Shown piece by piece: positions 71 to 41,493 of a stretch of DNA of 64,000 nucleotides. The DNA is from Balanoglossus misakiensis (taxonomy: Eukaryota; Animalia; Hemichordata). Location of the stretch: assembly GCA_040954595.2 (NCBI GenBank), contig CM082593.2, positions 9,433,200 to 9,497,199 on the forward strand, read 5' to 3'. Numbering within the stretch: the first letter of the stretch is position 1; each line of letters starts with the position of its first letter. The notes below the pieces were generated by a model. It saw only the letters and a list, made by a program, of their open reading frames with translations. It was not told the origin of the DNA and ran no database searches. Both the position numbers and the translations under genes were made by a program.

Positions 71-90
71 GTCCTTGGGAGTGTGAGATT

Positions 91-456
91 CTATTATTCT
101 CACACTCTCACTGAATCGAAAGCTGTATATGACGCGAGCGCTGATTGGTTGACAAAGAGTTCTTTCTCTTCGCGCACTAAATGTTATCCAATGGCGTGAT
201 GTGTATTACAGGCACAGAACTATAACGTGCCCCCAGACGACAGTTCCAGAGTCATTTATTCAATGTTTTAACGAATTTGGCTAATTTGTGACCGTGTGAG
301 AAAAATAATCTCACACACCAAGGACCTGGGATCGTATTTCTCACACTCGTCAGGGATATTTTGTCCCACACTCGCCTGCGGCTCGTGTGTGACAGAAAAT
401 CCCCAACTCGTGTGAGAAATACGATCCCAGGTCCTTGGGAGTGTGAGATTCTATTA
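91..456 (-). mobile_element. Non-autonomous Crypton-like hairpin element (family 1)
   Basis: Hairpin 307-450; on the - strand the apex is GA-GCC-GCA-GGC-GA with a second GA/GA pair. CTATTA is directly repeated at both ends (91-96, 451-456). Preceded head-to-tail by the end of another copy (71-96). Same architecture as the YR-coding element at 21484-23392. Confidence 0.7.
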
Positions 457-7452: not shown

Positions 7453-7661
7453 TACTGTAAAACGGGTTATTTTCGCAAGCAACTAATTTTTGCGAAATAC
7501 GCGAGAGCCAACAAAATGTGAAAATAAAAAGTTGCGTAAAATGTTTTTCGGAGATAAAGATGCAATGAAATACAAGAACATGAAAATTAATCCTCGCATA
7601 ACAGTTGCCTCTTTTAATATCGCAAAAATTTCCTGTCACGAAAATAATCCGTTTTACGGTA
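7453..7661. mobile_element. TA-flanked MITE (Tc1/mariner-type)
   Basis: TACTGTAAAACGGGTTATTTTCG...CGAAAATAATCCGTTTTACGGTA. Related copies near 10145-10332, 11761-11955, 13600-13812 and 23764-23957. Confidence 0.55.
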
Positions 7662-7813
7662 ATATTGAAGGTCAGAATGCTTTTGATGAGAGAACAATAC
7701 ACCAGTTGCAAAGTATCTTGACTAATATAAAAATGTTTGAATTTTCTGAAGAAGATATAATCTCGCAGTTGGTGTATTGTTTCCTCATCAAAAGCATTCT
7801 GACCTTCAATATT
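7661..7813. repeat. Palindromic MITE with about 48-bp TIRs
   Basis: AATATTGAAGGTCAGAATGCTTTTGATGAG...CTCATCAAAAGCATTCTGACCTTCAATATT; second copy at about 13818-13969. Confidence 0.65.
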
Positions 7814-8270
7814 ATTCTGTTGAGCTTTACATGCAATCTAGTCTATATATGTTCAGAGGCGATTTTATCATCGGTAACAGATCCTAAATACTAAAAGAGC
7901 ATAAAATGACTGCGACAGATACTTTGTTAGTTGTAACAGGTGTGAAATAAGAATTTGGATAACATTGACAGTATTTTGGCTATTGTTGGGGGGGGGGGGG
8001 TGGAGCAATAAGTGATTTTGAAACCCCATGTAACACCTGTCTTACCATTAATATGACTGCATTTATGGTACCATAAGGAATGCTAACAAAATGACTGGGG
8101 AACCCTGGTTACATTACCCTGATCACCACAATGGTTCAGTCCAACAGCATTGTTTTCTATGGTAAGGTTGGACCTCTGAAGAGGGAATTGGGGTGGAAGG
8201 GTTAAAAAAAAACACTGACTGACAATACTGCCAATAACAAACTATTGTTTTATCTTCTCTTTGTATACAG

Positions 8271-8391: not shown

Positions 8392-8810
8392 GTAAGTAAG
8401 CGATGTAAAACATTTCATACAACACTGCATACTAACAATAGTCATATCAACCTGACAAGGGAAGATGAAAAAAAACACTAAGCCCCATTGAACAGCTGAA
8501 TTTTCTTGGAATCTGGTTTTATAATAAACTTTGATTGATTGAAATGTGTTTTACATCTAAATGCATCGTTTTGGGAACATTTTCTAGAATGTATGTGATT
8601 ATTAAATTGAACTTGTATATTTGCTGGGGGCAACTATTTTTTCATTAAAGATGAGGAATGCCCAATGTTCGGATTGTCTTCAAAAAGATGACAACAACTC
8701 AAGTCTCAAAAACTCTTTGTTTTGAATTTTGAATTGTTTTTGTTGCATCAGTAACGACTTCACATGTGGATGCCACATTTTGATTCTTAGCAAATGTTGT
8801 ATTTTGACAC

Positions 8811-8959
8811 AGAGGAGTCCATTCCTCAATCATATCACCCCACAAACTGCCTGAACTCCAAAAACTTAGCGACAACGCGTGAAGTACAGATGGTACCTAT
8901 GAAGGATTATGCGGCTGATCCACACCACATGATACTTCTCAAAGGTTATCAACTTGCTG
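8811..8959 (+). pseudogene. MED25: MED25-like exon, frameshifted (copies at 10427-10575 and 20544-20692)
   Basis: RGVHSSIISPHKLPELQKL followed by a stop/frame change, then VPMKDYAADPHHMILLKGYQLA (MED25 SPRKLP...DPRHMVLVRG). Acceptor is AC in copies 1-2 and AG in copy 3. Confidence 0.8.
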
Positions 8960-9496
8960 GTAGGTATCTGTTGCTATGCAAATATTTGCAATCATACCAT
9001 CCTGATTCTAAAGTTCACAGGTCAAATATATAACTTGTTTATGTGGCCATTTACAACCAATTCATCATTTTGTGGTTTGTTAAAATGTTACTCGAAATCG
9101 GTACTTCCATGAAATGGTTGTAATATATTTAATAATATTTATTACACATCACAAATTATTATGCGCTCTTGGTTGGCTAATACTAAATATGATAGTACTT
9201 CATGACCTCTGCACACGAACTGTGCCTTACAGAAGTTATTTTCGCGAGTGATGCAGTGTATTCTGTTGCAGTACTTTCACAAGCCAAGCATTTTATTCCC
9301 CATCATGTCAATGCCTGGCCAATGAATTACACATCCTCCTGAAAATTGCTGGTAGGTGAGAAATCAGTTTCCATGGTTGCATCCTGGATGAAACACTGGT
9401 ACAGGTTCAAGACAAGTTTAGTGACATTGTGTAAATCCACAGAAGAATTTCACATCAACTCTATAATCTTCAATTTTTCTCATGATTGTGTTTCAG

Positions 9497-9691
9497 AAAA
9501 ATCTGTGTCAAGTGGTGATACATAAGAGGTTGTCATCGTGAAACCTTAAACCATAGCAACCACTTCAGTGTCTACAACCACTACCACAACACAGCCATTG
9601 AAACCCGCATCAACAGTTACCATGTTTACAGCATCTACCTCCAGTATGACCTCAAATCCTCTCAAATCAACTGTTGGAAGTTCAACTCCAG
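9497..9691 (+). pseudogene. Thr/Ser-rich exon of the MED25-like fragment with in-frame stop (copies 11113-11307, 21222-21416)
   Basis: TTTCAG...CAG|GTAAAG, phase 1-1; in-frame TAA (GAT ACA TAA) in all three copies. Confidence 0.6.
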
Positions 9692-11988
9692 GTAAAGTCT
9701 CCAGTGTTGCTTATGAGACATTTGTCAAATTAGGTCCGCACATAATTAGACCACCAAGTGAAGTGTGAGATATAGTAGAATATTGCCATGTTGATCTTCA
9801 CTACAATATTAGTTAAAGTTATATAGCACTCTGTGATCAACGAGTTGAAAATACAGCATGAGCTGTAGTCCCCTTCATCAGCTGTACACGTAGAATGAAC
9901 AGAGAAACAGAGAATCATGGGGTATTCAAAGTAGGAAATATGTGCAGGACCAGGTGCATCGATCAGAAAAATTTCCTACAGTGGATATTCTATCTGAGGA
10001 TGGTGACTTCATGACCGCGATATTGTGCCCTTGAGCGAGGCACTTTACTTCTCATTGCTCTTGGGAGACTGGCTTTGTAGAGGTGATTTGCACCTGTTCT
10101 AGTCTTTCTACTAGACATATTTTCTGTGTTTGCGATTGATGAATTACTGTCTAATGGGAAATTTTTGTAAACTTCGCGAGAACCAACAAATGCGAATTAA
10201 AAAGTCATATAAAAATGTTTTTCGGGGATATTGGTGAAGTTAGTGAAATATAAGAATGCGAAATTTAATTGTAGCATAACAGCTGTCTCTATTGATATTG
10301 CGAAAATTTCTTGTCACAGAAATTTCCCGTTTATTTAGTGTGTGTGTCTGTCAGTCTGTTGCATCAGTAACGACTTCACATGTGGATGCCACATTTTGAT
10401 TCTTAGCAAATGTTGTATTTTGACACAGAGGAGTCCATTCCTCAATCATATCACCCCGCAAACTGCCTGAACTCCAAAAACTTAGCAACAAAGCGTGAAG
10501 TACAGATGGTACCTATGAAGGATTATGCGGCTGATCCACACCACATGATACTTCTCAAAGGTTATCAACTTGCTGGTAGGTATCTGTTGCTATGCAAATA
10601 TTTGCAATCATACCATCCTGATTCTAAAGTTCACAGGTCAAATATATAACTTGTTTATGTGGCCATTTACAACCAATTCATCATTTTGTGGTTTGTTAAA
10701 ATGTTACTCGAAATCGGTACTTCCATGAAATGGTTGTAATATATTTAATAATATTTATTACACATCACAAATTATTATGCGCTCTTGGTTGGCTAATACT
10801 AAATATGATAGTACTTCATGACCTCTGCACACGAACTGTGCCTTACAGAAGTTATTTTCGCGAGTGATGCAGTGTATTCTGTTGCAGTACTTTCACAAGC
10901 CAAGCATTTTATTCCCCATCATGTCAATGCCTGGCCAATGAATTACACATCCTCCTGAAAATTGCTGGTAGGTGAGAAATCAGTTTCCATGGTTGCATCC
11001 TGGATGAAACACTGGTACAGGTTCAAGACAAGTTTAGTGACATTGTGTAAATCCACAGAAGAATTTCACATCAACTCTATAATCTTCAATTTTTCTCATG
11101 ATTGTGTTTCAGAAAAATCTGTGTCAAGTGGTGATACATAAGAGGTTGCCATCGTGAAACCTAAAACCATAGCAACCACTTCAGTGTCTACAACCACTAC
11201 CACAACACAGCCATTGAAACCCGCATCAACAGTTACCATGTTTACAGCATCTACCTCCAGTATGACCTCAAATCCTCTCATATCAACTGTTGGAAGTTCA
11301 ACTCCAGGTAAAGTCTCCAGTGTTGCTTATGAGACATTTGTCAAATTAGGTCCGCACATAATTAGACCACCAAGTGAAGTGTGAGATATAGTAGAATATT
11401 GCCATGTTGATCTTCACTACAATATTAGTTAAAGTTATATAGCACTCTGTGATCAACGAGTTGAAAATACAGCATGAGCTGTAGTCCCCTTCATCAGCTG
11501 TACACGTAGAATGAACAGAGAAACAGAGAATCATGGGGTATTCAAAGTAGGAAATATGTGCAGGACCAGGTGCATCGATCAGAAAAATTTCCTACAGTGG
11601 ATTTTCTATCTGAGGATGGTGACTTCATGACCGCGATATTGTGCCCTTGAGCGAGGCACTTTACTTCTCATTGCTCTTGGGAGACTGGCTTTGTAGAGGT
11701 GATTTGCACCTGTTCTAGTCTTTCTACTAGACATATTTTCTGTGTTTGCGATTGATGAATTACTGTCTAATGGGAAATTTTTGTAAACTTCGCGAGAACC
11801 AACAAATGCGAATTAAAAAGTCATATAAAAATGTTTTTCGGGGATATTGGTGAAGTTAGTGAAATATAAGAATGCGAAATTTAATTGTAGCATAACAGCT
11901 GTCTCTATTGATATTGCGAAAATTTCTTGTCACAGAAATTTCCCGTTTTACAGTTCATAAATAAATCAACTAGATCTTTTTACTGCAG

Positions 11989-12251
11989 ATGCCACACCAA
12001 CTAATCATCTGTTACCTGGACGACCAAGTCAAATTGGAAGTCAGTCTCCACAACAACTGTCATCCTCTCAACAGAAACTGACTCAACCGAGTCAGCCCCA
12101 GATGCAGGGCCAAGGTAAAAGGTCATCAATGCCTGTTGCCCAGCCTACCAGTTTACCAAACCAACCAGTATCCACTGTCACAGCAAACAGGACACAACAA
12201 CCCAATGTGACTGCCTCAAGTATCCCCATGAGACAATTTTTGTCCACTCAG
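11989..12251 (+). pseudogene. Gln/Pro/Ser-rich exon of the MED25-like fragment (copy 23992-25444 split by a TIR element)
   Basis: CTGCAG...CAG|GTACAG; open frame DATPTNHLLPGRPSQIGSQSPQQ...RQFLSTQ. Confidence 0.6.
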
Positions 12252-12820: not shown

Positions 12821-14125
12821 GTAGGTACAGTCAAACCTGTCTATACTGGCCAGTCAAGGGACTTCCAAAACTGACATTTATAGACAGGTGGCTTCTATAG
12901 ACTGGTCAATAAATGTGCAATGTACATGTACATGAAATGAAACAAAGTTGCCACTACATAGAGGTGGCCACAAACACATAGTTGACTGTCATATATGTTA
13001 TGTTGCCATGGCAGTCATTTACCATGAGTTCGATTATACATTGCCAAAACCGGAGGAAAAAAATATTCAAGTTCCCCTTTTCATATTCTCCATCAATGGT
13101 ATAATACGCCAGTGTCATGACCACACACAACTTCCACCCTGCTTGTAGCCACGAGAGTGAAAAAAACCTCACCAATATGAACAATCGGTCTCTATCATTT
13201 ATTCATTTTGGGCGAGTTTTTATGCTCATATCATTCAAGCGGGATGGAAATTGTGTATGGTTGAACATTCATTCACTACATATACATATGTACATTAACA
13301 TAAAATGTCTCTTGTATCAAACATAATGGAAAAAAAGGGCAGCGAGAGAGAGACTTTGTCCCTTTAATAGAAATGTGCATCTATTTCAACTATTACTTCT
13401 GTCTTGAACAATCTTTCCTTAATAGAGTGGTGTACTGATTAGAGAGATGTCTTATTGACAGGTTTCACTGTATAATATCAACATTTTCAGTTCCATAATC
13501 CTTCAGTGTTTGCCAGAGAATTTCGACAGCACTCAAAAACTTTCTCTGCCATACTCACAATAAGAGAAAGCTTGCACCTGTGTTTTACTGTTAAATTACC
13601 ATACCACAAAAAACAGTTTGTTTTTGCGAGCAATAAAGTTTTCGCGAAATATGCGAGAACCAACAAACGTGAAAATAAAAAGTCGCGTGAAATGTTTTTC
13701 GTAGATAAAGATGCAATGAAATACGAGAATGTGAAAATTAATCCTCGCGTAACAGTTTGGTCTTTTAATGTCGCGAAAAATTTCCTTTCATGAAAATAAT
13801 CCGTTTTACAGTCTGGTAATATTGAAGGTCAGAATGCTTTTGATGAGAGAACAATACACCAGTTGCAAAGTATCTTGACAAACATGAAATGATTGAATTC
13901 TCCAAAGAAGATATAATCTCGCAGTTGGTGTGTTGTTTCCTCATCAAAAGCATTCTGACCTTCAATATTATTCTGTTGAGCTATACATGCAATCTAGTCT
14001 ATATATGAACAGAAACATTGTATATTGATCTGCAACTCTCCTCCACATCCCTTGCCAAGTCAAGATAGTATTAATTACAGTGGATTTACTGCAAAACAAT
14101 TGGCTGCCATGTTGGGTGAGGTAAG

Positions 14126-15185: not shown

Positions 15186-15519
15186 GGTCAGCGATGTAAA
15201 GGAGTAGCTCTAAGTGAGCGCTGTTTAAGGCGCGGTGGGGACAGTAGGGGTCTGTGTGCCAGCCAATCATATGCTGTCTGAAGCCCGCCGGAGGGAAAGT
15301 TTCCCGGGCTTGTCATTGCCACTTTTGCATTCGGCGGAGCAGCAGGCTGGACACGGGACGCTATTCCCTTCCGTAGTGTCAAGCGACACTGACAGCGGAC
15401 TGTACGTTTATTCAAGTGGTACACTTTGACTTTCACGATCCTTGAGACAGCGGAACTGACCCATTCAGAGGTATTGTCACGATTTCTGAGATTATCGCTA
15501 ACCTACCTTATCCACAGTT

Positions 15520-16866
15520 TTGAGACTTGGCTCGAACGCTCCCCCGATTGACACTGCTACTTTTGCCGCGTCGGACTGGCGAGAAAAAAGGGCAACGCTG
15601 AAGACACCTCAAACGCTACCTACGGGTAGGCCCGTGCCTGATCCTTCGCTCGTTATATCTGGGTCTGTACCTGAATCAGTGCCCGCGCCGGACTCTGAAG
15701 TACAAAACTGGGCCGATCAACATGGGATCTTACTGCCAACTCTGAATGTGTTAGCGGCCAACGGGTTTACTACGATGCAAGTGGTCAGATTAATTCAGCA
15801 TGACGATTTATATTTCATGAAGATATCTCCTCTTGCCCAGTTTCGGCAATTGGACGCAGCGCTTATCGAGCTTGCCTCACAGAAACGTACGACCGCTCGA
15901 CGGGCAGATGTGGCGGGAGATCGAGATGCCACCCAAGTCGCTGACCGGAACCGTGCGCCCTCGCATACGACGGCCGGACAACAATACACAGACAACATGG
16001 TGGCCCCCAGTACATCAGACTCCCACGAAGCCAGTTCAGCGAGCGCGAAGACCGTCGACTCCGAACAGGCACAACAGGCAAGTCGAGGAGAAGTTGGACT
16101 GGACTCGCTGCTTCAGGCGTTGAATATCAACGCGGGACCACTGAACAATGACCTGACCCCGCCCAGGAAGATACCTCAGCGCATGGACTTAGAACCCATG
16201 GTGTATTTAAAACCGGCGTCCATGGCAGGTTTGAAATTTTATGACATTGTTGACTATGTACCAAGCTCCCTACAGGCTAAGGTCGACCAAAAAGTGCTGG
16301 CCTTTGGAGCGGGGGAAAACAAACTGGTGTTTGAATCGGGTCCATCAAAACCAAAATTAGGGTCGGTGACCCCTCAGCAATGGTCTGCGGCCAACTCTCG
16401 CATTTTGTACGAACTCATTTCAAAGCACAATTACAACCTTACTCAAGTACAAGAGTATTCAGCATACACCATTAAAGTGTGTCAACTGGCAGACCGATAT
16501 GAATGGGTGTCTGTTTTGCATTATGATCGGGAGTTCCGTAAACTACAAGCAGCCTATAATTTACCATGGGGAACTGACTCCCAACATTTGTCCACTGTGT
16601 ATTTGAGGGAAAAAGGGGCAGTGCAAAACAAAGCACGGGGGTCATATCAGGTCAAAAATGGTAAGTCTACTTCTGCGGCGCCCGTTGATGTCAAGACAGG
16701 ACAACCCATTTGTATCGGTTACAATAAAGGGGATTGCAAGTTCGGGGTAAAATGTAATTACAGTCATATATGTTTGGATTGCAAAAAGGGCCATTCCAAA
16801 ATCAACCACCCAAACTTGTCAGGGGGGAACCAAAGAGCGAGAACAAGCCGCTTCAAGGGTAACTGA
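15520..16866 (+). CDS. Ngaro ORF1 (Gag-like) with C-terminal Cys/His zinc finger and N-terminal SAM-like segment
   Basis: 448-codon open frame; YEWVSVLHYDREFR and CIGYNKGDC...CNYSHICLDC...H motifs typical of Ngaro ORF1. True start codon uncertain. Confidence 0.85.
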   Translation: MRLGSNAPPIDTATFAASDWREKRATLKTPQTLPTGRPVPDPSLVISGSVPESVPAPDSEVQNWADQHGILLPTLNVLAANGFTTMQVVRLIQHDDLYFMKISPLAQFRQLDAALIELASQKRTTARRADVAGDRDATQVADRNRAPSHTTAGQQYTDNMVAPSTSDSHEASSASAKTVDSEQAQQASRGEVGLDSLLQALNINAGPLNNDLTPPRKIPQRMDLEPMVYLKPASMAGLKFYDIVDYVPSSLQAKVDQKVLAFGAGENKLVFESGPSKPKLGSVTPQQWSAANSRILYELISKHNYNLTQVQEYSAYTIKVCQLADRYEWVSVLHYDREFRKLQAAYNLPWGTDSQHLSTVYLREKGAVQNKARGSYQVKNGKSTSAAPVDVKTGQPICIGYNKGDCKFGVKCNYSHICLDCKKGHSKINHPNLSGGNQRARTSRFKGN

Positions 16867-18603
16867 CCTGCCCACCCCTCCCCCCTTCCCTTCAGCCTTA
16901 CGTTATGAAGCCTGGGTTACTGAAATTTTCCCCAATGACCCAGACAAAGATTTTATTCTTGACGGGATTGAACAGGGTTTTTGCATTGTCGATCCTGGTT
17001 CTAATATCCGCCCTGCTGAGACAAATAATTACAAATCTGCAACGGACCCCTCATTTCGTGTTGCAGTGGAGGAACAAATTTTGGTTGAGTTGAGTGAAGG
17101 TCGTTATGAGGTCACATCTGACAAACCAACTATTGTAAGCGCACTGGGGGCCATTCCCAAACAAAACTCACCAGATGTTAGACTGATTCATGATTGCAGT
17201 CAACCGCCCAATTTTGCAGTCAACGACTATGCAACTAATCCTTCGTTTTCCTTCCAAACCTTTGGGGGGGCCACCAAATTAATTAAGCCAGGGTCCTTTT
17301 TAGCTAAGGTGGATTTGAAGTCTGCATACAGGTCTGTCCGTATCCATCCATCTATTAATAGTGCTACTGGGTTGAAATGGACCTTTTCTAACATGCAAGA
17401 GGCTACTTATATGTTCGACACGAGGCTCCCATTTGGAGCCAAAAAGGCCCCCATCATTTTTCACCGTCTCACCCAAGCTGTGCGTAGGATGATGCATCGC
17501 AAGGGTTATGTTTGTTTAGTGGTCTACCTTGATGATTTCCTCATTGTTGCAGATACTTACCAGGAGTGCCAAATTGCCCTGAACACCCTTCGTAAGTTAG
17601 GGTTTGCTATTGCTTGGGGTAAGGTTGAGAGACCCACTCAACGGTTAGTATTTTTAGGTATTGAAATTGATACCCGCGCTTTTACTGTTGCCTTGCTGCT
17701 GCCAAAGCTTCATGAGCTTTATTCATTGCTGCTTATTTTTCACACAAAAACACGTGCATCCCGCCGCCAGCTGCAATTCCTTGCTGGGAAATTAAACTGG
17801 GCTTGCCAGGTCATTGTCGGAGGTAGGACTTTCCTCCGTCGCATCCTGGATTGCATTAATAATCTCCGCCAACCTTCTCATAAAGTTATCCTTGGTAGGG
17901 AATTTAAGGCCGATCTTGATTGGTGGATTCGCTTTTTACCACATTTTAATGGCACTTGCAAGATTCTGAATACAGACCCTATAACTGATGTGCATACAGA
18001 TGCTAGCAACACCGCTGCCGGTGCTTATTTTAGGGGGGATTGGGTGTACACCAGGTGGGCTGACTGGCCATCTACTTCACACTTCATATTAATTACAAAG
18101 AGGTGCTGGCTGTTGCAGTGGCAGCACAAAGATGGGCACCTGTGTGGGCAAATCATAGAGTTGTAATTCACACGGACAGTATGTCTGCTATGGGTATGCT
18201 TAATAAGGGGACATGTCGCCATCCATTCATGATGTCTGTGCTTCGTTCTCTATTTTGGCTCTCAGCTTCTTACAACTTCAGCATTCAAGCAGTTTATGTT
18301 CCTGGTAAACTCAATCACATTCCTGATGCCATTTCCAGGTTGCATCAACCAGGTCAGTTCATGAGGTTGCATACACTGCTCCACCCTTATGGAGAGCTCC
18401 ACCCCACCTTCACCTTAGCTAGCTTCCCACTTCACATGCCTTATACTGCTGCTACCTTTCTTACTCGTCAGATCCAGAGATCAAACAGCTGGAGGAACAT
18501 CTGGATAGGGAAGTGGCCACATATAGAGGAAGTGCCTTTGCAGAAAATACACAGCGCACATACTCTGTCCACTGGAAGTCATACATCTCCTTTTGTGTTA
18601 TGA
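16862..18603 (+). pseudogene. Ngaro ORF2 reverse transcriptase / RNase H, one frameshift near 18060-18085
   Basis: KVDLKSAYR, LPFG, YLDDF; RNase H HTDAS; continues in a shifted frame as HINYKEVLAV...HTDS...DAISR. The frame is open upstream of 17066 to at least 16862, overlapping ORF1. Confidence 0.9.
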
Positions 18604-19478
18604 TGGGTTACCCCCCTTTGCCAGCCAGTAGTGACCTGGTTTGTCGTTACACAGCCTACTTAGCTCGCCGTCTAAAGTTCAACTCAGTGAAGCAGTATTT
18701 AAATATTATTCGTATTTTGCACTTAGAGCATGGCTTCGCCAATCCACTCCAAGACAATTGGCTGCTGACTATGCTGTTAAAGGGCATAGCCAAAGTTAAG
18801 GGAACTACAGTTGCCAGGAAGCTGCCTCTCACCCCCACATTGTTATTGGGCATTCACAGTCAGTTATGTTTTTCATCAGCCTTTGATTCTGTCTTTTGGG
18901 CAGCCTGCCTTGTGGGTTTCTTTGGGTTGCTGCGCAAATCCAATTTCTTAGTTCCTTCAGGCTCTAAGTTTGACCCAGACAAACATCTAACTAGGGCTTC
19001 CTTCCAGGTGCATGCATGGGGTCTCACCATCATTATTCAATGGACCAAAACGCTACAAACTCGGGATCGGGTTCTTCAAGTTCCTCTCCCATGGATTCGC
19101 AATCACCCATTATGCCCTGTTTCTGCAGTCCTTAGGGCATTTCAGCATTCTAAGGGGGCACCCCCTACAGGCCCAGCCTTTGTCATCCCTGCAGGTAATG
19201 GTAGCTTCCGCCCGCTCACTGTCCCACAGTTCACCTCAAAGCTCCGCACCCATCTTAGTCGCCTAGGGGTGCAGGTCAGTGAATATTCTTCACACAGTCT
19301 CCGTCGGGGAGGGGCATCCTGGGCAATACAGTGTGGGGTTCCCAGTGATATAATTAAGCTGATGGGGGATTGGAGGAGTGACGCATACCTTCGTTACTTG
19401 GTCCTCCCCCTCCCTTTCAAAGTTAACTCTGTTAAGCTTTGTGCCAAACAGCTTCCTTTTTCTACTTCTACATTGTAA
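18513..19478 (+). CDS. Ngaro tyrosine recombinase
   Basis: LLRKSN, WTKT, HSLRRGGAS, GDWRSDAYLRY: complete R-K-HxxR-W-Y catalytic set. Confidence 0.92.
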   Translation: MATYRGSAFAENTQRTYSVHWKSYISFCVMMGYPPLPASSDLVCRYTAYLARRLKFNSVKQYLNIIRILHLEHGFANPLQDNWLLTMLLKGIAKVKGTTVARKLPLTPTLLLGIHSQLCFSSAFDSVFWAACLVGFFGLLRKSNFLVPSGSKFDPDKHLTRASFQVHAWGLTIIIQWTKTLQTRDRVLQVPLPWIRNHPLCPVSAVLRAFQHSKGAPPTGPAFVIPAGNGSFRPLTVPQFTSKLRTHLSRLGVQVSEYSSHSLRRGGASWAIQCGVPSDIIKLMGDWRSDAYLRYLVLPLPFKVNSVKLCAKQLPFSTSTL

Positions 19479-21485
19479 GCAAGTTTTCTATGACTACCTG
19501 CACTACTATATTGGGTTTTTGGGAGAATTTTGTAGTAAACACAGACAGACTTCAACTGTCCATTAGTATGTGTTTTTGTCAGTATTAAAGTTTCCCCCAA
19601 AGTTGTGCCCAATTTGTGTGTCCCAGTGTGGTTTGTGTGTGAGAGCCAGTGTGCCTTAAGGAGTAGCTCTAAGTGAGCGCTGATTAAGGCGCGGTGGGGA
19701 CAGTAGGGGTCCGTGTGCCAGCCAAACATATGCTGTCTCAAGACCGCCGGAGGGAAAGTTTCCCGGGCTTGTCATTGCCACTTTTGCATTCGGCAGAGCA
19801 GCAGGCTGGACACGGGACGCTATTGACCCACCCTCCCACCACACATTCCAGGGAATTTCTGCCTGTCTTTGTTGCTTTATATTATTTATATTTATTGTAT
19901 TTATTAAAAGCATTGTTTGTATGCTTTGCATTGTTTTCATAGTTCTTTTGATAGTGTAGTTTTCAGGGGGAGAATTTTGTAGTAAACACAGACAGACTTC
20001 AACTGTTCATTAGTATGTGTTTTTGTCAGTATTAAAGTTTTCCCCAAAGTTGTGCCCAATTTGTGTGTCCCAGTGTGGTTTGTGTGTGAGAGCCAGTGTG
20101 CCTTAAACATTTCATACAACACTGCCTACTAACAATAGTCATATCAATCTGACAAGGGAAAATGAAAAAACACATCTTTTCAAACTAGCTTACTGTGCGG
20201 ACCAATTTCATTAAGCTCCATTGAACAGCTATATTTTCTTGAATTCTGGTTTTATAATTAATTTTGATTGATTGACATGTGTTTTACATCTAAATGCATC
20301 GCTTTGGGAACATTTTCTCGTATGTATGAGATTATTAAATTGAACTTGTATATTTGCTGAGGGCAACTAAATGTTCAGTAAAGATGAGGAATGCTCAATG
20401 TTTGGATTGTCTTCAAAAAGATGACAACAACTCAAGTCTCAAAAACTCTTTGTTTTGAATTTTGAATTGTTTTTGTTGCATCAGTAACGACTTCACATGT
20501 GGATGCCACATTTTGATTCTTAGCAAATGTTGTATTTTGACAGAGAGGAGTCCATTCCTCAATCATATCACCCCGCAAACGGCCTGAACTCCAAAAACTT
20601 AGCGACAAAGCGTGAAGTACAGATGGTACCTATGAAGGATTATGCGGCTGATCCACACCACATGATACTTCTCAAAGGTTATCAACTTGCTGGTAGGTAT
20701 CTGTTGCTATGCAAATATTTGCTATCATACCATCCAGATTCTAAAGTTCACAGGTCAAATATATATCTTGTTTACGTGGCCATTTACAACCAATTCATCA
20801 TTTTGTGGTTTGTTAAGATTTTTATTACTCTAAATTGGTACTTCCATAAAATGGTTGTAATATTTATTACACATCACGTATTGTTATGCGCTCCTGGTTG
20901 GCTAATACTAAATATGACAGAACTTCATGACCTCTGCACACGATCTGAGGCTTAAGGAAGTTATTTTCGCGAGTGATGCAGTGTCTTCTGTTGCAGTACT
21001 TTCACAAGCCAAGCATTTTATTCCCCATCATTTCAATGCCTGGCCAATGAATTACACATCCTCCTGAAAATTGCTGGTAGGTGAGAAATCAGTTTCCATG
21101 GTTGCATCCTGGATGAAACACTGGTACAGGTTCAAGACAAGTTTAGTGATATTGTGTAAATCCACAGAAGAATTTCACATCAACTGTATAATCTTCTATT
21201 TTTCTCATGATTGTGTTTCAGAAAAATCTGTGTCAAGTGGTGATACATAAGAGGTTGCCATCGTGAAACCTAAAACCATAGCAACCACTTCAGTGTCTAC
21301 AACCACTACCACAACACAGCCACTGAAACCCGCATCAACAGTTACCATGTTTACAGCATCTACCTCCAGTATGACCTCAAATCCTCTCAAATCAACTGTT
21401 GGAAGTTCAACTCCAGGTAAAGTCTCCAGTGTTGCTTACGAGTCATTTGTCATAATTAGACCACCAAGTGAAGTGTGAGATATTG

Positions 21486-21677
21486 AACACCTATTGCCTG
21501 GCCATGAGGGCCATAGCGGCCGTTTATTACACCCGAGGGGCTGTGAGTTACCAGAATCACATGCTATTTCTCGAGGCCGTAGGCCGAGGGAAATAGCGTA
21601 TGATTCTGGTAACTCACAGCCACGAGGGTGTAATAAACGGCCGCTATGGCCCGAATATAGGCCAGGCTATAGGTGTT
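21486..21677 (+). repeat. About 190-nt terminal hairpin of the Crypton
   Basis: Arms pair from AACACCTATTGCCTGGCC to GGCCAGGCTATAGGTGTT; apex GA-GGCC-GTA-GGCC-GA (21573-21587); further GA/GA appositions at 21535-36/21624-25 and 21506-07/21653-54. Confidence 0.92.
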
Positions 21678-21887
21678 TTATAATAAACCTCATGCTAACA
21701 GTTTATGTTTGCAATATTGAACAAGTTTAATTAAATACCTTGAATACGAAATACAATAAATTCAACATGAACGGATGCTATAACCCGAATAAAACAGCTT
21801 ACGGCTTATTATAATGTAATATGCAAAATTTGGTAAGCTGACAAAGTACAACTTTTGACAGTCAATTGGCTTCGGATTCCATAAAGC

Positions 21888-23249
21888 CTAATTGTTGTGG
21901 ATGTTGACGACGCATCCATGAAAGTTATAGTTCACTACTTTCTTACTACCGCTCACTTCTTGTTGAGTAACAAAATTAACCGGCGGCGGCGGAGAAGAAG
22001 TAGTCAGTTCACTCAGAAAAGACCGTTGCAAGGGCGATGCCATTATCGGAGCTAGCGACGACTGCGGCTGTTCTATTGTTTGTGCGCCTTCTATCTGTTC
22101 GTTTGTCGACGAACTTCCTTGAATAGCACTGGAAAGTGTACGGCTCATTTCTCGCTTCTTGTCTTCACCAACTCTGCTATAACTTCTGATACTGGTCTCT
22201 GATTTGTGACCACTAACTCCCATGATATGCCGTGCCTCAAAGCCTTTGTCGTCCAGCGTTGTCACAGTGGTAGCACGCAAACAGTGGTTGGTGTACGTAC
22301 GAGAACATTCAGCTTCGACAGATATTTTCTTCATTTTGTCGGCGAGCGTATTTTTACCAACTGCTATGCTGTCATACCAAACAGAGTCATCTTGACTTTT
22401 CAGTGCTGGTTTTGGTCGCTGCCAAAAAGCCTCAGAGTTTGGGTTTAGCTTTGTTAAATACAATTCAAAAGACCAAACTGGACATAGCGAGTTTTCAGGA
22501 GTCTCGTACATCCTCCCTCCTTGACTCATTTCCGCGTCGTCTATACAGCCACGGTGATTTTTCGTCAGCATATCTTTACAGAGCGACACATATTTCAGGC
22601 CCGTTGAATCACGTTGGACGACGAAGTGCGACTTCGTCATGTTACGTAGATTTTCGCGGCCGCGATTGCATAGATACATCATAATATCAACGAAAACCTT
22701 GTTTTGTAACCCGCGTGGCGTTGACTTGTCAAGTGCAGACGACAACATCATTTTTGTCATGTCATCTTTGGTAACGGGTTCTTTATGTTGCGTTGCACCC
22801 TTACCCTCGCCTTTCAGTTTTACAAGCATTGCAGTGAATACATCATTGGCAGGCTTGAAAATCTCACTGTGGATGATGTCGGTGCCGCACTGTTTCAGAA
22901 AATATCGTTGTAAGCCATATCGTATTGTTATCATTGACTTACTCGAATACAGCTGTGCGTTGTTCTGTCGAACCCCAGCGTAGAAATCCCGCAGCGTGAG
23001 ACACAAATCGGCTGGCGCAGTCTTTTCCACGTCGGATATGGTAGTACCAATTTCTTCACAAAACGAAGTAAAAATCCTCGTTGCGTATTGAATTACATAT
23101 TTGGTGTTACGTGAATCCTTGTTGTCGACAAGGTGTTGCAGTTCTTGCTCCGACAAAAGGGAAAATCTTGCAATTTTCTCTTTAGGTTGGCATACGACAT
23201 CTTCAGCGGTGGCCATTGTGCTAGCAGACGACGCGACGCTGATTGACAT
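21888..23249 (-). CDS. Crypton tyrosine recombinase (DUF3504 family, related to ZMYM/KCTD1/QRICH1 domains), 453 aa
   Basis: Intronless open frame; NRGRENLR, TKNH, CPV..FELY, TNHCLRAT, VSGHKSETSIRSY give an intact R-K-HxxR-H-Y set; ends in the NFHGCVVNI-type tail seen in animal Cryptons. Confidence 0.92.
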   Translation of the reverse strand: MSISVASSASTMATAEDVVCQPKEKIARFSLLSEQELQHLVDNKDSRNTKYVIQYATRIFTSFCEEIGTTISDVEKTAPADLCLTLRDFYAGVRQNNAQLYSSKSMITIRYGLQRYFLKQCGTDIIHSEIFKPANDVFTAMLVKLKGEGKGATQHKEPVTKDDMTKMMLSSALDKSTPRGLQNKVFVDIMMYLCNRGRENLRNMTKSHFVVQRDSTGLKYVSLCKDMLTKNHRGCIDDAEMSQGGRMYETPENSLCPVWSFELYLTKLNPNSEAFWQRPKPALKSQDDSVWYDSIAVGKNTLADKMKKISVEAECSRTYTNHCLRATTVTTLDDKGFEARHIMGVSGHKSETSIRSYSRVGEDKKREMSRTLSSAIQGSSSTNEQIEGAQTIEQPQSSLAPIMASPLQRSFLSELTTSSPPPPVNFVTQQEVSGSKKVVNYNFHGCVVNIHNN

Positions 23250-24225
23250 GACCCTGTGACGACACGTTGGTCACGTGACCGGTTTATATTTTTTCTGCTA
23301 TTGCCCTATCGGTTCATAGTCGATTCTATTTTCCTATCACGTGATGGATTCTGGCGAATCACGGCACAGTATTAGCATGAGGTATATTATAAAGTAGAAT
23401 ATTGCCATGTTGATCTTCACTACAATATTAGTTAAAGTTATATAGCACTCTGTGATCAACGAGTTGAAAATACAGCATGAGCTGTAGTCCCCTTCATCAG
23501 CTGTACACGTAGAATGAACAGAGAAACAGAGAATCATGGGGTATTCAAAGTAGGAAATATGTGCAGGACCAGGTGCATCGATCAGAAATATTTCCTACAG
23601 TGGATTTTCTATCTGAGGATGGTGACTTCATGACCGCGATATTGTGCCCTTGAGCGAGGCACTTTACTTCTCATTGCTCTTGGGAGACTGGCTTTGTAGA
23701 GGTGATTTGCACCTGTTCTAGTCTTTCTACTAGACAAATTTTCTGTGTTTGCGATTGATGAATTACTGTCTAATGGGAAATTTTTGTAAACTTCGCGAGA
23801 ACCAACAAATGCGAATTAAAAAGTCATATAAAAATGTTTTTCAGGGATATTGGTGCAGTTAGTGAAATATAAGAATGCGAAATTTAATTGTAGCATAACA
23901 GCTGTCTCTATTGATATTGCGAAAATTTCTTGTCACAGAAATTTCCCGTTTTACAGTTCATAAATAAATCAACTAGATCTTTTTACTGCAGATGCCACAC
24001 CAACTAATCATCTGTTACCTGGACGACCAAGTCAAATTGGAAGTCAGTCTCCACAACAACTGTCATCCTCTCAACAGAAACTGATTCAACCAAGTCAGCC
24101 CCAGATGCAGGGCCAAGGTCAAAGGTCATCAATGCCTTTTGCCCAGCCTACCAGTTTACCAAACCAACCAGTATCCACTGTCACAGCAAACAGGACTCAA
24201 CAACCCAATGTGACTGTTTCAAGTA

Positions 24226-25414
24226 CAGTGGAACACCGATTATCCGAACCTGTTGGGCGGGTTAGATTTTGTTCGGATAATTGATTGTTCGGATAATCGA
24301 TTTTGGCACGTCCGAACAAAGGAAATTGACCACACCATTGGGGCATGCATATGTTACGATGTGTCCCACATGCACATGCATTTTCCATGCACTCACAAAA
24401 AGAAGTTAATATAAATAATAAAACACAATTCGTCTTCTTTTATATAAAAAATACATATATTAAGAGTTCAAAAGGTTAAGAAAGAAAAAAAGACGAAGTC
24501 AAAGCTGCAATGTTCTGATTCGTTCAACATCGTATGTAGCCGGTCATCGTACCAAACCATGAACGTGCGTAGGCCTTCCATGGCCACGGTAGATTTCGCT
24601 AGAGCTGGTGTCTCGTTCTCTTTATCGTCCTAATTTTTCATGCCATGAGTTTATTTCTGAGAAACAAAGTCGATGATTTCATCATACGTTAATGTTTCGA
24701 AGCTGTCATAGTTCTCGCTAGTCTCCAAATCGTCGATGTCAGTGACATTCAAACCAAGCAAAAGAAGCTCTCCGCACGAGGTCACTTCCGCAAGTGACGT
24801 CTTGGCTGTCATTCATATCGGCGCTGCCATGGTCACCGACGGCGACCCGACACGCCTTCACTGTGTCGCGGAATGAAGTCCATGCGTTTGAAAAGCCGTG
24901 TCTTTGATGTTGACACCTCGGACGATCTCCGCCGTCTGCTCGCACGAGTCGAAGACGGGCGATCTCATCCAACCCATGGCTTTCATTTGTATTATCAACG
25001 ACAGTGCTAAGCTTATTTCGGCGATAAATCTACTTCACACTATCAAAAAATTGACCAAAGCCGTGTCGACGCGACAAGTGACTTTTCGTGTTTTACACTT
25101 GAGTGTGAAATCCTAGTGTCGAATGTTACGATACCCGAAAGTGTGACACTCTGTTGTCGTAAAATGATTGAAATATTCAATGATAAAGACATTTTTAACA
25201 CGTCCCACCGCCCTTTACAACAGAAACAATTAGAACTGACCCAAGAAATCTGTCCGAAATGACAGTTTTCCTGCGGAAATATCACAGACCGCCGAGAAAA
25301 CAGGTGCTTGGCATGGCTAATTAAATGTTCAGGGACCGTACCCGGGACCGTACCAAAGCGTTCGGATAATCCGAAATTCGGATAATTGGTGTCCGGATAA
25401 TCGGTGTTCCACTG
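24226..25414. mobile_element. Non-autonomous Tc1/mariner (pogo/Tigger-like) element inserted in an exon
   Basis: TIR CAGTGGAACACCGATTATCCG / CGGATAATCGGTGTTCCACTG; TA duplicated (24224-25, 25415-16); empty site CAAGTATCCCC at about 12217-12227. Confidence 0.9.
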
Positions 25415-26727
25415 TATCCCCATGAGACAATTTTGTCCACCCAGGTACAGCTGTGGTCTACCTTCTGCTTTTTGAGATTCAAATTAGCTGTTTCTAGTTA
25501 CCCATCCTGTGAATTGAAAGCTTTTTATGACTGTATCGCATAGCCTTGTCTTACCATTGTCTACACAGTAGACTATTTATTTTCAAAACACATTCAAAAC
25601 TTCTGTTTTGGTTGCAAAAAAGCCACTCTGTAAATGGAAAGACTCTTTGGATAATGCCACAGACTCATTAATCAAATTCAAGTTTTAATGTGATTAATGT
25701 TGATAAGCCCTAAAACCTGATCCCTTCCAAATGTGAGTATGTGTGTTGAAAATAGGACTTTGAGAGTTGTAAGCTCAACATCGATTCAAAAATTGAAGTC
25801 ATGAATTAAAAAATGGGGTTTTGAATACTGGTCTTGATAATGCTTCATATTAACTAGGTTTGTTACTCTTTTTGGACAGGCAACTTCACCACCAAAGATG
25901 ACTTCCCAGCATGTGCCAGCTGCTGCACTGAAAGCCACAGAGGGTGTCATGCAAATGGCAAATGCTAGTCAGTTCAGTAAGATGCCACAAATTGCTGCTG
26001 TGAATTCTATCAACTAACAGCCACAGCAGAGATGGCCAGGTACAGATTCAAAGCCACAACGAGGTAGGTACAGTCAAACCTGTCTACAGTGGCCAGTCAA
26101 GGGACTTTCCTAAACTGGCATTTATAGACAGGTGGCTTCTATAGATAGGTCAGTTAATGTGCAATGTACATGTACATGAAATGAAACAAAGTTGCCACTA
26201 TAATAGAGGTGGCCACAAACACAGATTTGACTGTCATATATGTTATGTTGCCATGGCAGTCATTTACCATTAGTTTGAATATACTTTGCCAAAACCTGAG
26301 GAAAAAATATTCAAGTTCCCCTTTTCGTATTCCCCTATCAATGGTATAATACAACAGTGTCATGGTAAAATTTTGTGACATTTTTGCTAACTGCTAAAGC
26401 CCAAGTAACATTGTTTTTTTCAGTATTTTTCAGCGAAGGAATTAACCCTAGTTTCTTGTTCTGCTATGGATAGCTTTATGAAATGTTCAGTCTTTAGCTT
26501 CTATACAAAACTTGTACATGAGTAATGGCCATTGTGAATATTAAATGAACTCAGACGAGAATTCATTTTTCAACAATAACAATGCTGATCAATATATAAA
26601 ACGCCTTTGTTTGAAAACCAAACTCTGAATAAATTCTTAATGTTTTACAGAGTAGAATAAAGCTGATATCCAAAGTTAAGGTTGAAGTTATTGACGTTTT
26701 AATACTACTGTGTTTACTTATCAGCAG

Positions 26728-29797: not shown

Positions 29798-30190
29798 TAA
29801 GCAATGTTGTTATTGTTTAAACATTGTATTCAAGCCTGGGTCTGGACTTGGATGCAATTTGTCAATAATAACAGTGATTGGTAACTGCATGTTTACATAA
29901 CTGGCTAACTGTTAAAAAGACCAGCTGTTCTATTTGGTGTGTGTACAGTACACATGCCATTGGCAGCTTATGGCTCAGTCAGTGTTTGCCTGTTGATTTC
30001 TCTATGTGTGTGTGTCTGTCTGTCTGTATATGTACTCCGGTGTAGACTTTTTTATTGTGTTATCCCTGAATGGGACCACTGTGTCCTTAACGCGATGTTT
30101 TACACTCAGCAGCGATATTTTGTCTAACACGAGTCAAAATATCCCCAACTCGTCTGAGAAATCTTATCCCAGGTCCTAAGGTTGTGAGAC

Positions 30191-30587
30191 TAATAGAATC
30201 TCACACTCCCAAGGACTTGGGATCATATTTCTCACATGTGTTGAGGATTTTCTGTCCCAAACAAGCTGCAGGCGAATGTGGGACAAGATATCCCCGACGA
30301 GTGTGAGAAATACGATCCCAGGTCCTTGGTGTGTGAGATTATTTTTCTCACACGGTCACAAATTAGCCAAATTCGTTAAATAAATGACTCTTGAACTGTC
30401 ATCTGGTACATTGTAGATTCAGTATCGCGTCATTGGATAACATTTAGCACATGTTGTTAAAGAACTCTTTGTCATCCAATCAGCGCTCGCATCATATACA
30501 GCTCTCGATTCAGTGAGAATGTGGGATTGATTTGTTCTCACACTCTGATCCAACACTCTCAGCATGCCAGGAGTGTGAGAATCTATT
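30191..30587 (+). mobile_element. Family-1 Crypton-like hairpin element, decayed; paralogs about 40770-41175, 45590-45957, 58352-58690
   Basis: Reverse-complement similarity to 91-456; apex AAGCTGCAGGCGA derivable from GAGCCGCAGGCGA by CpG decay. Confidence 0.7.
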
Positions 30588-40394: not shown

Positions 40395-41493
40395 TTAAAC
40401 ATTGTATTCAAGCCTGGGTCTGGACTTGGATGCAATTTGTCAATAATAACAGTGATTGGTAACTGCATGTTTTCATAACTGGCTATCTGTTAAAGAGACC
40501 AGCTGTTCTTTTTGCTGTGTGTACAGTACACATGCCATTGGCAGCTTATGGCTTAGTCAGTGTTTGCCTGTTGATTTCTCTATGTGTGTGTGTCAGTCTG
40601 TCTGTATATGTACTCCGGTGTAGACTTTTTTATTGTGTTATCCCTGAATGGGACCACTGTGTCCTTAACGCGATGTTTTACACTCAGCAGCGATATTTTG
40701 TCTAACACGAGCAAAAATATCCCCAACTCGTCTGAGAAATCTTATACCAGGTCCTAAGGTTGTGAGATTTATGGAATCTCACACTCCCAAGACTTGGGAT
40801 CATATTTCTCACATGTGTTGAGGATTTTCTGTCCCAAACAAGCTGCAAGCGAGTGTTGGACAAAAAATCCCTGACGAGTGTGAGAAATATGATCCCAGGT
40901 CCTTCATGTATGAGATTATATTTCTCATACGGCCACAAATTAGCCAAATTCATCTGAAAACATTGAATAAATGACTCTTGAACTGTCATCTGGCATGTTG
41001 TAGTTTCTGTATCGCGTCATAGGATAACATTTAACACACGTTATTAAAGAACACTTTGTCATCCAATCAGCGATCGCGTCATATAAAGCTTTCGATTCAG
41101 TGAGAATGTGGGATTGATTTGTTCTCACACTCTGATCCCACACTCTCAGCATGCCAGGAGTGTGAGAATCTATTTAGATCTACGAGTTTGAAATCTTAGG
41201 TGAAGAGTTTATCAATTTCACTGCCAACCCTGTAGGGCATTCTGGGATATGTGTTCATGCCAAAGCACAAACAGTTATGACCTGACAGCTCAGTTTGTAG
41301 ATCATTTCTACAAATCCACAAAGAGACTCAAAGTTTAGAAAAGTTGTGTCTGTTAGAAATATTAGAAATATTACTGTTAATACTTAATTTCAAAGCCATG
41401 TGAATTTGTTCACTTTAGGGAAATTTTTAAAGGAAGGGAGGATTGGTATTGACTTGAATAATTACAATGGATGTTTTTGTTCTCTATTTTCAG

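Follow-up and report, generated by a model that had tools for sequence, protein, structure and literature searches.

The closest model for the arrangement described here is the cholera phage CTXphi. In the cited portions of the reports, its attP1 and attP2 sites, which have 12-bp and 5-7-bp centres and lie 90 bp apart, fold into the only usable site (PMC4246890, PMC3442271). CTXphi borrows XerC and XerD from its host, has one target (dif), and makes rolling-circle ssDNA that is packaged. It cannot excise because the duplex prophage is unable to fold (PMC4246890). VGJphi integrates from a dsDNA circle by one strand exchange (PMC3442271). In integrons, one local hairpin is the attC site, and the recombinase IntI, which carries an I2 insertion, lies outside the cassette (PMC4792948). 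Among eukaryotic elements, those of the CryptonA group (Kojima and Jurka 2011, PMC3212892; Glomhopper, PMC13465315) have a single DUF3504 tyrosine recombinase and abundant non-autonomous derivatives; the cited sections describe them as having no reverse transcriptase (RT), no terminal inverted repeats and no target duplication. CryptonF-1_cRei of Chlamydomonas, an active Crypton of another lineage, uses a 5-nt target identical to its own end; clean excision and copy-number gain are described for it, and no hairpin is reported in the cited part of that paper (PMC9977147). Ideas about Crypton movement have rested on analogy since 2003, and animal Cryptons were previously reported without any terminal structure.

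We found an intact CryptonA element of 1909 bp (21484-23392, no strand assigned) in the window, the 64,000-nt stretch of Balanoglossus misakiensis DNA analysed here. Its exact ends are fixed by two empty paralogous sites within the window (9773/9774 and 11389/11390), in which 21483 is joined to 23393 without duplication. The same empty joint was seen in one contig of run X2, and likeness was lost just before 21480 in 36-38 contigs of that run. The element has no terminal inverted repeat, long direct repeat or target-site duplication between or at these ends, as in other CryptonA elements. Looking for the 4-6-bp terminal direct repeat of the Crypton F and S groups, we found that 21480-21483 and 23389-23392 agree at 3 of 4 nt, a likeness explained here as the YAW arm motif described below. 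By these features and its gene content, the element is a CryptonA DNA transposon. A search of viral contigs gave 76 pattern matches and no relatives of the element.

The only long open reading frame of the element (21888-23249, - strand) encodes a 453-aa DUF3504 tyrosine recombinase, identified by its open frame, domain match, fold search and alignment to homologs. The match to PF12012 was above the cut-off (E 3e-11), and the domain search gave no second domain above it. All six catalytic residues are present (R196, K230, H322, R325, H348 and Y357), as the earlier note had said in calling the element an intact Crypton, and they are kept in 50, 50, 50, 50, 47 and 49 of 50 aligned homologs, respectively. 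The fold search returned a Cre/Xer-like fold, with IntI (2a3v) at rank 31. As in other CryptonA elements, neither an accessory C-terminal domain nor an RT was found with the recombinase. We found no HUH transposase of the kind sought for IS200/IS605, Helitron and Replitron, and the ORF list of the element contains no Rep or helicase. Homologs occur in echinoderms and molluscs; the nearest named protein matches are ZMYM/KIAA1958/KCTD1-like proteins of sea urchin, starfish and bivalve. A TATA-like hexamer (23283-23288, - strand), 34-39 nt before the first ATG, may be a promoter.

We found that the element begins with a terminal hairpin of ~190 nt, next to which lies an internal site complementary to both ends. 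The left end (21486-21503) pairs with 21660-21677 at 17 of 18 positions, in helices of 9 and 8 bp. Directly beside that segment, 21678-21698 pairs at 20 of 21 positions with the right end (23372-23392), in helices of 12 and 8 bp. Both pairings had been proposed in the earlier note, all of whose coordinates hold, and both are present in the minimum free energy (MFE) fold of the whole element on the + and - strands. The inner hairpin (21508-21652, + strand), recovered by repeat search and by folding, has arms (21508-21578 and 21582-21652) that are 89% complementary around a 3-nt loop. Its tip (21578-21582, + strand) is a C-GTA-G triloop; many family copies have C-GCA-G, and the variant 21580 T>C was present in all four runs compared. 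The fold of the + strand contains tandem GA/GA mismatches at 21506-07/21653-54, 21535-36/21624-25 and 21573-74/21586-87. None of 200 shuffles folded as well as 21484-21677. An Rfam search with the hairpin gave two matches below the gathering score, including a sub-threshold match to a miRNA precursor. Two pairs of read variants (21518/21642 and 21531/21629) look compensatory; we did not use them as evidence because mirror mapping between the arms is possible. We rejected the idea that the hairpin is a separately inserted palindromic MITE, as it lies at the terminus of homologs of unrelated sequence. We also considered cutting of the internal site in the manner of a protelomerase; hairpin-ended or broken copies were not seen.

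The layout of hairpin and internal site recurs in relatives with different sequences. Among 42 sequences with at least 900 nt downstream (the window and 41 loci), 18 have the hairpin 3' of the ORF (five of the 18 are one family), compared to 4 of 34 upstream. It occurs in both halves of a tree made by a quick method. In the window and in five loci (L002, L003, L004, L006 and L009), the internal site matched the far end of its own locus at 18-20 of 20 positions, and those of unrelated loci at 10-15, indicating that the far-end pairing is family-specific. The complementarity to the far end is 21 nt long in the window and 24, 38, 46 and 37 nt in L002, L003, L004 and L006. In L013-L017, which are 99.7-100% identical and have five different left and four different right flanks, a perfect match of 11 bp stops at the very point where the flanks begin to differ. 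In all 16 left ends tabulated, the internal site is inverted, abuts the hairpin and has a spacer exactly 2 nt shorter.

The earlier note had proposed that covariation between the ends and the internal segment be sought, and we found it. On the right, the Watson-Crick fraction was 0.89 in 10 elements compared to 0.57 when partners were swapped between families (maximum of 5000 swaps, 0.69). On the left, it was 0.86 in 16 elements compared to 0.62 (maximum of 5000, 0.73). At least two pair types occurred at 11 of 14 (right) and 11 of 16 (left) paired positions. The families share ancestry, and the far ends were located by best match, so the paired fraction is inflated. Some loci count against a general layout: 9 of 22 with at least 200 nt upstream gave no clear far-end partner (L029, L034, L043, L044, L052, L053, L075, L078 and L080; some are truncated or decayed), and in ~15 with a long stretch downstream such a hairpin is missing (L005, L018, L035, L036, L038, L045, L051, L054, L061, L064, L065, L068, L069, L071 and L077). 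Distant relatives retain the layout in sequences that are unrelated and co-vary.

The most abundant members of the family are ~450-nt derivatives (joint 21701->23159 in run contigs); summed contig depth does not equal copy number. In a held-out search, a strict detector gave 2 new elements; a relaxed detector, applied to 16 other hairpins, gave one convincing element (L009, 14/16 and 12/12), scores of 10/12 being taken as chance. This 448-nt element, upstream in L009, has YAW, WTR, a spacer starting with G and a target match of 3/3. A second window element (44822-45268) has YAW, WTR and the 7/5 register described below, with 0/3 identity at the cut.

We found that the hairpins carry a strand-specific code. 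Over 16 hairpins read on the non-coding strand, G.A mismatches outnumbered C.T mismatches 96 to 5, and tandem GA/GA outnumbered TC/TC 40 to 0. Twelve of the 16 have a C-GNA-G tip, in which N is A, T or C. The bias between G.T and A.C was not significant (31:24). C-GNA-G loops and sheared GA pairs are stable in DNA, and these features would thus be stable on the non-coding strand only. The fold of 21484-21677 also favours that strand (-92.8 kcal/mol on +, z -21.8, compared to -87.0 on -, z -18.7). In contrast, the whole element slightly favours the other (-314.1 on + and -317.0 on -). Folding of the non-coding strand, as proposed in the earlier note, is supported; because the whole element does not favour +, folding energy alone is weak evidence about the strand.

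The insertions define the target. Twelve of 13 fit a symmetric target, YAW^N6-WTR, with WTR at +7 to +9 (12/13; background 0.08, P 1e-12). This motif was first noticed in L013-L017; without them the count is 8 of 9. YAW precedes most homologous left ends. At the window insertion, the host bases 21480-21483 (+ strand; run X2 contigs and homologous left ends) are the inner end of the left target arm, with the YAW motif just before the cut, and 23393-23402 (+ strand; empty site) contains the 6-nt target spacer (23393-23398) and the WTR (23399-23401) with which the right target arm begins. T is at +1 in 10 of 13 insertions; the window insertion has A. Identity between element and target spacers at positions 1-6 was 7/9, 8/9, 5/9, 2/9, 1/9 and 3/9, with homology confined to the first 2-3 nt, at the predicted cut. 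The spacers also differ in length (7 nt in the element, 6 nt in the target).

These data point to a conserved register in the folded site: an 11-nt arm, a 7-nt top spacer over a 5-nt bottom spacer, and a second arm, the cut falling precisely on the boundary of the element. In the window (all + strand), the top spacer is 21484-21490, and its first 2 nt (21484-21485) are unpaired, predicted to be extrahelical and swapped first. The earlier note had seen these as 2 extra nt at the junction, and 2 unpaired nt are indeed present in 16 of 16 left ends. The predicted left recombinase-binding arm (21491-21501), placed by the fold and the cross-family register, pairs with the left arm of the internal site (21662-21698), which comprises 21662-21672, the 5-nt bottom spacer 21673-21677 and a right part, 21678-21698, opposite the far end. 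Within the right end (23372-23392, supported by its pairing and by the covariation in 10 elements), 23382-23392 is the arm predicted to bear the scissile phosphate. A site centred on the palindromic hexamer at 21678-21683, as suggested previously, fits the window and L013; it fails for 44822-45268 and for the target flanks, and we replaced it with the 7/5 register. The host spacer lies at the ORF-start end in 13 of 13 insertions. Given standard tyrosine recombinase polarity, which tells which strand is cut, the cut strand would be the non-coding strand, the one bearing the GA/GA and GNA code, with one fixed cut point.

Based on these results we suggest, as the likely though far from certain explanation, that this CryptonA forms a single-stranded circle, which folds and is integrated through one strand exchange followed by replication. 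The joined ends of the circularised non-coding strand would pair with the internal mirror site. Recombinase would bind the 11-nt arms of this folded site (7 over 5 nt of spacer, 2 nt flipped out) and those of the target, cut the non-coding strand alone where arm and spacer meet, and swap 2-3 nt. This exchange with a double-stranded YAW-N6-WTR target would make a pseudo-Holliday junction, to be resolved by host replication. A second exchange would be lethal, and the bulged spacer would prevent it, as it does in CTXphi and attC. The earlier note had already proposed integration through a single strand exchange, which the one-sided junctions and the 2-3 nt of homology at the cut support. The least certain step is the origin of the circle, which most likely comes from a single exchange of the top strand between the two ends while integrated (a figure-eight); replication would release it, giving one daughter with the element and one without. 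Such one-strand copy-out would also explain the clean excision and copy-number gain of CryptonF-1_cRei. No circle (go-back) joint was among the joints listed (15/29 in one set and 13 in another), from contigs, which drop rare forms. Release of a 1.9 kb single strand in a eukaryotic nucleus is a difficulty for the model, the element having no Rep or helicase.

The predicted mechanism resembles known systems to different degrees. Like CTXphi, the element has a layout of two inverted sites of unequal spacer with a hairpin between, predicted here to fold into one usable site on one strand; this folded site, with 11-nt arms and a 7/5-nt bulged spacer, resembles attP1/attP2. A single exchange into a symmetric duplex target with a 6-bp spacer, homology only next to the cut and resolution by replication are described for the phage in the cited sections (PMC4246890, PMC3442271) and predicted for the element. 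The element differs from CTXphi in having its own recombinase, a degenerate target, many targets and no Rep ORF. It shares with IntI x attC, as covered in the cited text (PMC4792948), conservation of structure over sequence, strand choice (predicted for the element) by mismatches and extrahelical bases, short crossover microhomology, a site 3' of the ORF and head-to-tail stacking; it differs in that an internal copy and the joined ends together make up the site, and in that the recombinase lies inside the element. Like DIRS1, it has an internal region complementary to both ends, integrates by tyrosine recombinase and makes no target duplication, whereas it has no RT/RNase H, no inverted terminal repeats and, unlike DIRS1, a long strand-coded hairpin. 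It shares a short target motif with CryptonF-1_cRei.

A double-stranded circle could also integrate by one exchange, as VGJphi does from dsDNA (PMC3442271), with the internal site serving as an extra binding site and the hairpin as a single-strand origin or cruciform that converts or activates the circle. We regard this as unlikely, if worth serious attention. One-sided junctions are equally expected from such a circle and, with the 2-3 nt of homology, fit any single exchange; the internal site is itself arm-spacer-arm, and binding of the same recombinase there would explain the covariation. In contrast, the complementarity (21-46 nt) is far longer than an 11-bp binding arm, the internal site has its fixed inverted position and 2-nt-shorter spacer in 16/16, and the folded strand appears to be the exchanged strand. 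The older proposal of Goodwin, a duplex circle with two exchanges via short direct repeats and an incidental or RNA-acting hairpin, is already disfavoured by the sequences and seems to us very improbable. It is published and fits the insertions and clean excisions described for CryptonF-1_cRei (PMC9977147), and the miRNA-precursor match might suit an RNA role. It does not account for spacers of 7 and 6 nt alike only at 2-3 nt, for the same polarity in 13/13 insertions (0.5^13 = 1e-4 under even heteroduplex sorting), or for conservation of hairpin, internal site and strand code across families.

Two further routes concern how the circle would arise. In the first, proposed in the earlier note, the integrated non-coding strand folds in place as a dumbbell, the internal site templates the joining of the ends, and recombinase reverses the integration junction to release the circle. 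Folding the whole element gives the dumbbell as its MFE structure, which is formally the reversed integration junction, and the abundant ~450-nt derivatives would fold more easily. However, the element would have to be single-stranded over its full length, with the host strand spanning it, and CTXphi, in the cited report, is unable to excise for the same reason (PMC4246890); excision of this kind is not supported, and we consider it improbable. The second is a DIRS-like route, in which an RT acting in trans would reverse-transcribe RNA of the element into cDNA of the non-coding strand, and this cDNA would use the internal site to fold and close into a circle for the recombinase to integrate. 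In its favour, the first cDNA strand to be made would be the non-coding one, DIRS elements rely on an internal region of complementarity in the portion cited (PMC13465315), a retroelement with RT and recombinase lies at ~15.2-20.1 kb of the window, and the homolog matches have no intron-sized gaps. Against it, the element lacks an RT, primer site and terminal repeats, and transcripts from the TATA-like box would start ~130 nt inside the end, of which the internal site could restore perhaps 21 nt. We think this route very unlikely.

The preferred reading, a folded single-stranded circle, may extend beyond this element. We lean, with little better than even confidence, to the view that a substantial fraction of the CryptonA elements of animals transpose as single-stranded DNA: the element's own tyrosine recombinase would copy out one strand as a circle, which would fold into a structure-coded site (a hairpin capped by GNA and punctuated by GA/GA, with a bulged core of 7/5 nt) and be joined through a single exchange to host sites that resemble dif. 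We found no description of this hairpin and internal-site layout for Cryptons in the literature searched; hairpins may be mentioned in Repbase Reports, Dfam entries, subscription journals or supplements. Eulor repeats have reportedly been called self-complementary.

Exact substrates are now defined: a folded donor site, a YAW-N6-WTR target, a strand and bond predicted to be cut, and an intact enzyme of 453 aa whose family includes near-identical copies. If the model is true, folded single-stranded DNA is recombined in animal nuclei too, as is known from integrons and the cholera phage. Eukaryotes would then have their first counterpart of integron/CTXphi recombination, and with it a transposition chemistry new to them, in which a single compact protein acts as integrase without making a double-strand break. 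The model would also provide a structural signature with which to classify numerous hairpin repeats that lack an explanation, and would hint at the original target of the domesticated relatives ZMYM2/3/4, QRICH1, KCTD1 and KIAA1958.

The element at 21484-23392 is a CryptonA transposon. Its single ORF (453 aa; 21888-23249, minus strand) matched DUF3504 above the cut-off and Phage_integrase and QRICH1 weakly. There were 384 homologs; those with names come from sea urchins, starfish, a brittle star, a sea cucumber, bivalves and a horseshoe crab. Among 50 aligned sequences picked out of 120 listed homologs, R196, K230, H322 and R325 were each conserved in 50/50, H348 in 47/50 and Y357 in 49/50. 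A fold search with the predicted structure (pLDDT 82) ranked the SEPHS1:QRICH1 complex top, followed by Cre, XerA, Tn1549 Int and IntI; XerA was the closest solved protein by sequence. The top entry, 9hjt, is that complex on DNA, and QRICH1 is a domesticated Crypton protein.

We found two empty copies of the insertion site in the window, between 9773/9774 and 11389/11390, within a segmental duplication. Because the empty copies join 21483 directly to 23393, with zero bases duplicated or lost, the ends are fixed at 21484-23392. The same joint was seen again in a contig from sequencing run X2. Tandem and segmental duplications at 8408-12222 and 20105-26364 (1.6-kb unit, 99.6% identical) are the source of the empty sites. 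The body of the element differed from the run X2 contigs at 2 places. A ~450-nt derivative (joint 21701->23159) retained the hairpin, the internal site and both ends, and its summed depth in these contigs was ~100x that of the body, depth not being a copy number. A Thr/Ser-rich frame (21263-21417) terminates at a GT donor, and the element may therefore be located inside an intron.

The earlier note had described a hairpin beside an internal site that pairs with both ends, and this was borne out. Positions 21660-21677 are complementary to the left end (21486-21503; 17/18), and 21678-21698 to the right end (23372-23392; 20/21). The hairpin between 21486-21503 and 21660-21677 has 71-nt arms and a 3-nt loop. 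Its folding energy was -92.8 kcal/mol (plus strand) and -87.0 (minus strand), and 0/200 shuffles were as low. For the whole element the two strands were about equal (-314.1 plus, -317.0 minus, kcal/mol). Positions 21538-21620 (minus strand) match Rfam mir-7131 below threshold (39.5 bits; gathering 74), and Crypton hairpins could account for some of the annotated miRNA precursors.

This layout recurs in relatives, taken as the best 80 of 325 related stretches in metagenome contigs. Of 42 sequences extending 900 nt or more 3' of the ORF (window counted), 18 had a hairpin on that side, five of them from one family; upstream of the ORF the count was 4/34. A gapped search gave 27 loci with a hairpin, distributed over the two halves of a quick tree; approximately 15 loci with long downstream sequence had no hairpin there. 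The 20 nt beside the hairpin base matched the element's own upstream end at 18-20/20 in 6 of 22 testable sequences, and unrelated loci at 10-15/20. Loci L013-L017 had a perfect 11-bp far-end match terminating exactly where the flanks diverge. The far-end match was partly decayed in L019 and L021, and the search found no clear partner in 9 of the 22. In L007 and L060 the hairpin is shortened, but the internal site and its far-end match are retained. The pairing fraction was 0.89 for right ends (10 elements) and 0.86 for left ends (16 elements), one per family, compared to 0.57 and 0.62 when partners were exchanged among families; these are upper estimates, since far ends were chosen by best match, those of the window element and L013-L017 being fixed independently. 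At least two Watson-Crick pair types occurred at 11/14 right and 11/16 left positions. Distant DUF3504 recombinases (L035, L038, L046, L061, L071; L064/L068; L072/L074/L077; 31-39% identity) have no downstream hairpin; they may be decayed or domesticated, or have ends of another type. More hairpin elements flank recombinase loci (L009 ~90-540, minus strand; L067 1-184; L031 3397-4222), and L031 carries several copies of its own ends, nested or inverted.

We found that the hairpins are strand-specific. In each of 16 hairpins we aligned one arm to the other, using a strand-neutral score. The set comprised the window element, two gene-less window families and 13 loci chosen from the 27, each of their families being represented by a single well-preserved copy, with duplicates and decayed copies excluded. 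Median identity between the hairpins was 0.49, with lenient gap scoring. On the non-coding strand, G.A mismatches numbered 96 and C.T only 5; tandem GA/GA numbered 40 and TC/TC 0. G.T versus A.C was 31:24. Twelve of the 16 had a C-GNA-G tip, with N = A (6), T (3) or C (3); the loop in the window element's own family is GTA or GCA. In DNA, sheared GA pairs and C-GNA-G loops have unusual stability, which the loop is not known to have in RNA. The GA/GA and GNA features are present only when the non-coding strand pairs with itself. As read from these sequences, the hairpins are written for one strand, the non-coding one.

Lining up element ends and flanks gave a recombination register that replaces the one in the earlier note, centred on the hexamer 21678-21683. 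In the predicted folded circle, the last 11 nt of the right end are paired perfectly up to the junction. Past it, 7 nt of the left end, beginning with 2 unpaired nt, face 5 nt of the internal site, and the second arm follows; this arrangement was found in 16/16 left ends. YAW stands at the arm end and WTR at the arm start. The host target is symmetric in the same way: YAW precedes the cut, and the spacer measures 6 bp. Thirteen insertions had a right end that could be placed with confidence (window, L003, L004, L007, L009, L013, L014, L015/17, L016, L019, L021, L031, L060); among them, WTR occupied target +7..+9 in 12 (background 0.08; 8/9 without the family where it was first seen) and T occupied +1 in 10. 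In run X2, 36 contigs diverged just before 21480, and 9 contigs ending at 23393 gave a consensus with identical target spacing (among 6 of 78 loose-end rows). At spacer positions 1-6, element and target were identical in 7/9, 8/9, 5/9, 2/9, 1/9 and 3/9, the likeness declining away from the cut.

In 13/13 insertions the entire host spacer lay next to the end where the ORF starts, and the hairpin end held the element's own spacer of 7 nt. Tyrosine recombinases usually cleave at the spacer's 5' border and swap 2-3 nt. With this polarity, the uniform placement points to one exchange, on the non-coding strand. This means that the strand exchanged is the one whose hairpins carry the fold code.

Our results are probably best explained by a folded non-coding-strand circle that integrates by one strand exchange plus replication. 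A single-stranded circle would fold, its junction pairing with the internal site, and the recombinase would swap one strand with the duplex target. The bulged spacer would prevent a second exchange, and replication would resolve the pseudo-Holliday junction, leaving one daughter filled and the other empty. The main rival, a duplex circle integrating by one exchange, as VGJphi does, accounts for the target, the spacer placement and the homology at the cut. However, it leaves the long inverted complement and the strand code unexplained, and we consider it unlikely. The proposed route of the folded circle resembles that of CTXphi, whose attP1 and attP2, with centres of 12 bp and 5-7 bp, are separated by 90 bp and fold together to make attP(+); a single pair of strands is exchanged, and homology is required only beside the cut (PMC4246890; PMC3442271). 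Integrons recombine folded attC comparably (PMC4792948).

The circle itself might form when the two integrated ends, whose spacers start with T in most cases, undergo a single top-strand exchange, and be set free by replication. We favour this over the excision of a folded dumbbell proposed in the earlier note because CTXphi cannot refold once duplex. It would also fit a different Crypton, in Chlamydomonas, for which clean excisions accompanied by copy gain are described (PMC9977147).

Other elements carry similar features. A held-out 448-nt element in L009 (14/16, 12/12) has YAW and WTR; its spacer begins with G, and its target is identical 3/3 at the cut. A 447-bp gene-less element at 44822-45268, also held out and unrelated in sequence to the Crypton, has the same tip on its hairpin, GA/GA and the internal site; its register is 7/5 and its target is of the YAW/WTR kind, with spacer/target identity 0/3 at the cut. 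Another gene-less hairpin family with a C-GCA-G tip and GA/GA lies at 94-453 (minus strand) and near 30185-30545, 40763-41132, 45593-45915 and 58347-58680. The 94-453 copy, a further held-out case, has the register, and the left end of another copy follows directly. Copies adjoin related elements head-to-tail, at their ends or at sequences resembling the internal site, which suggests that these elements target one another's sites.

The window contains other repeats. A long hairpin repeat (7660-7814 and 13817-13970) has no GNA tip or GA/GA code and is probably another kind of element. A retroelement of Ngaro-type layout (~15199-20106) contains split direct repeats (15199-15365/19658-19824 and 19521-19659/19968-20106) and three long frames: one is gag-like, one is an RT bearing a Y-x-DD motif, and one is a tyrosine recombinase (18513-19478).

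Kojima and Jurka report that terminal repeats were not found in animal Cryptons (PMC3212892), and the 2026 Glomhopper paper states that ends could not be defined; its available text has zero occurrences of hairpin, palindrome, circular or single-strand (PMC13465315). A Repbase human review ties Eulor5/6 to Cryptons, with hairpin and palindrome not mentioned in its available passages (PMC5753468). The window element is a real CryptonA member whose end architecture is undescribed in the open literature searched. The probable single-exchange mechanism of its folded strand would be new for eukaryotes.
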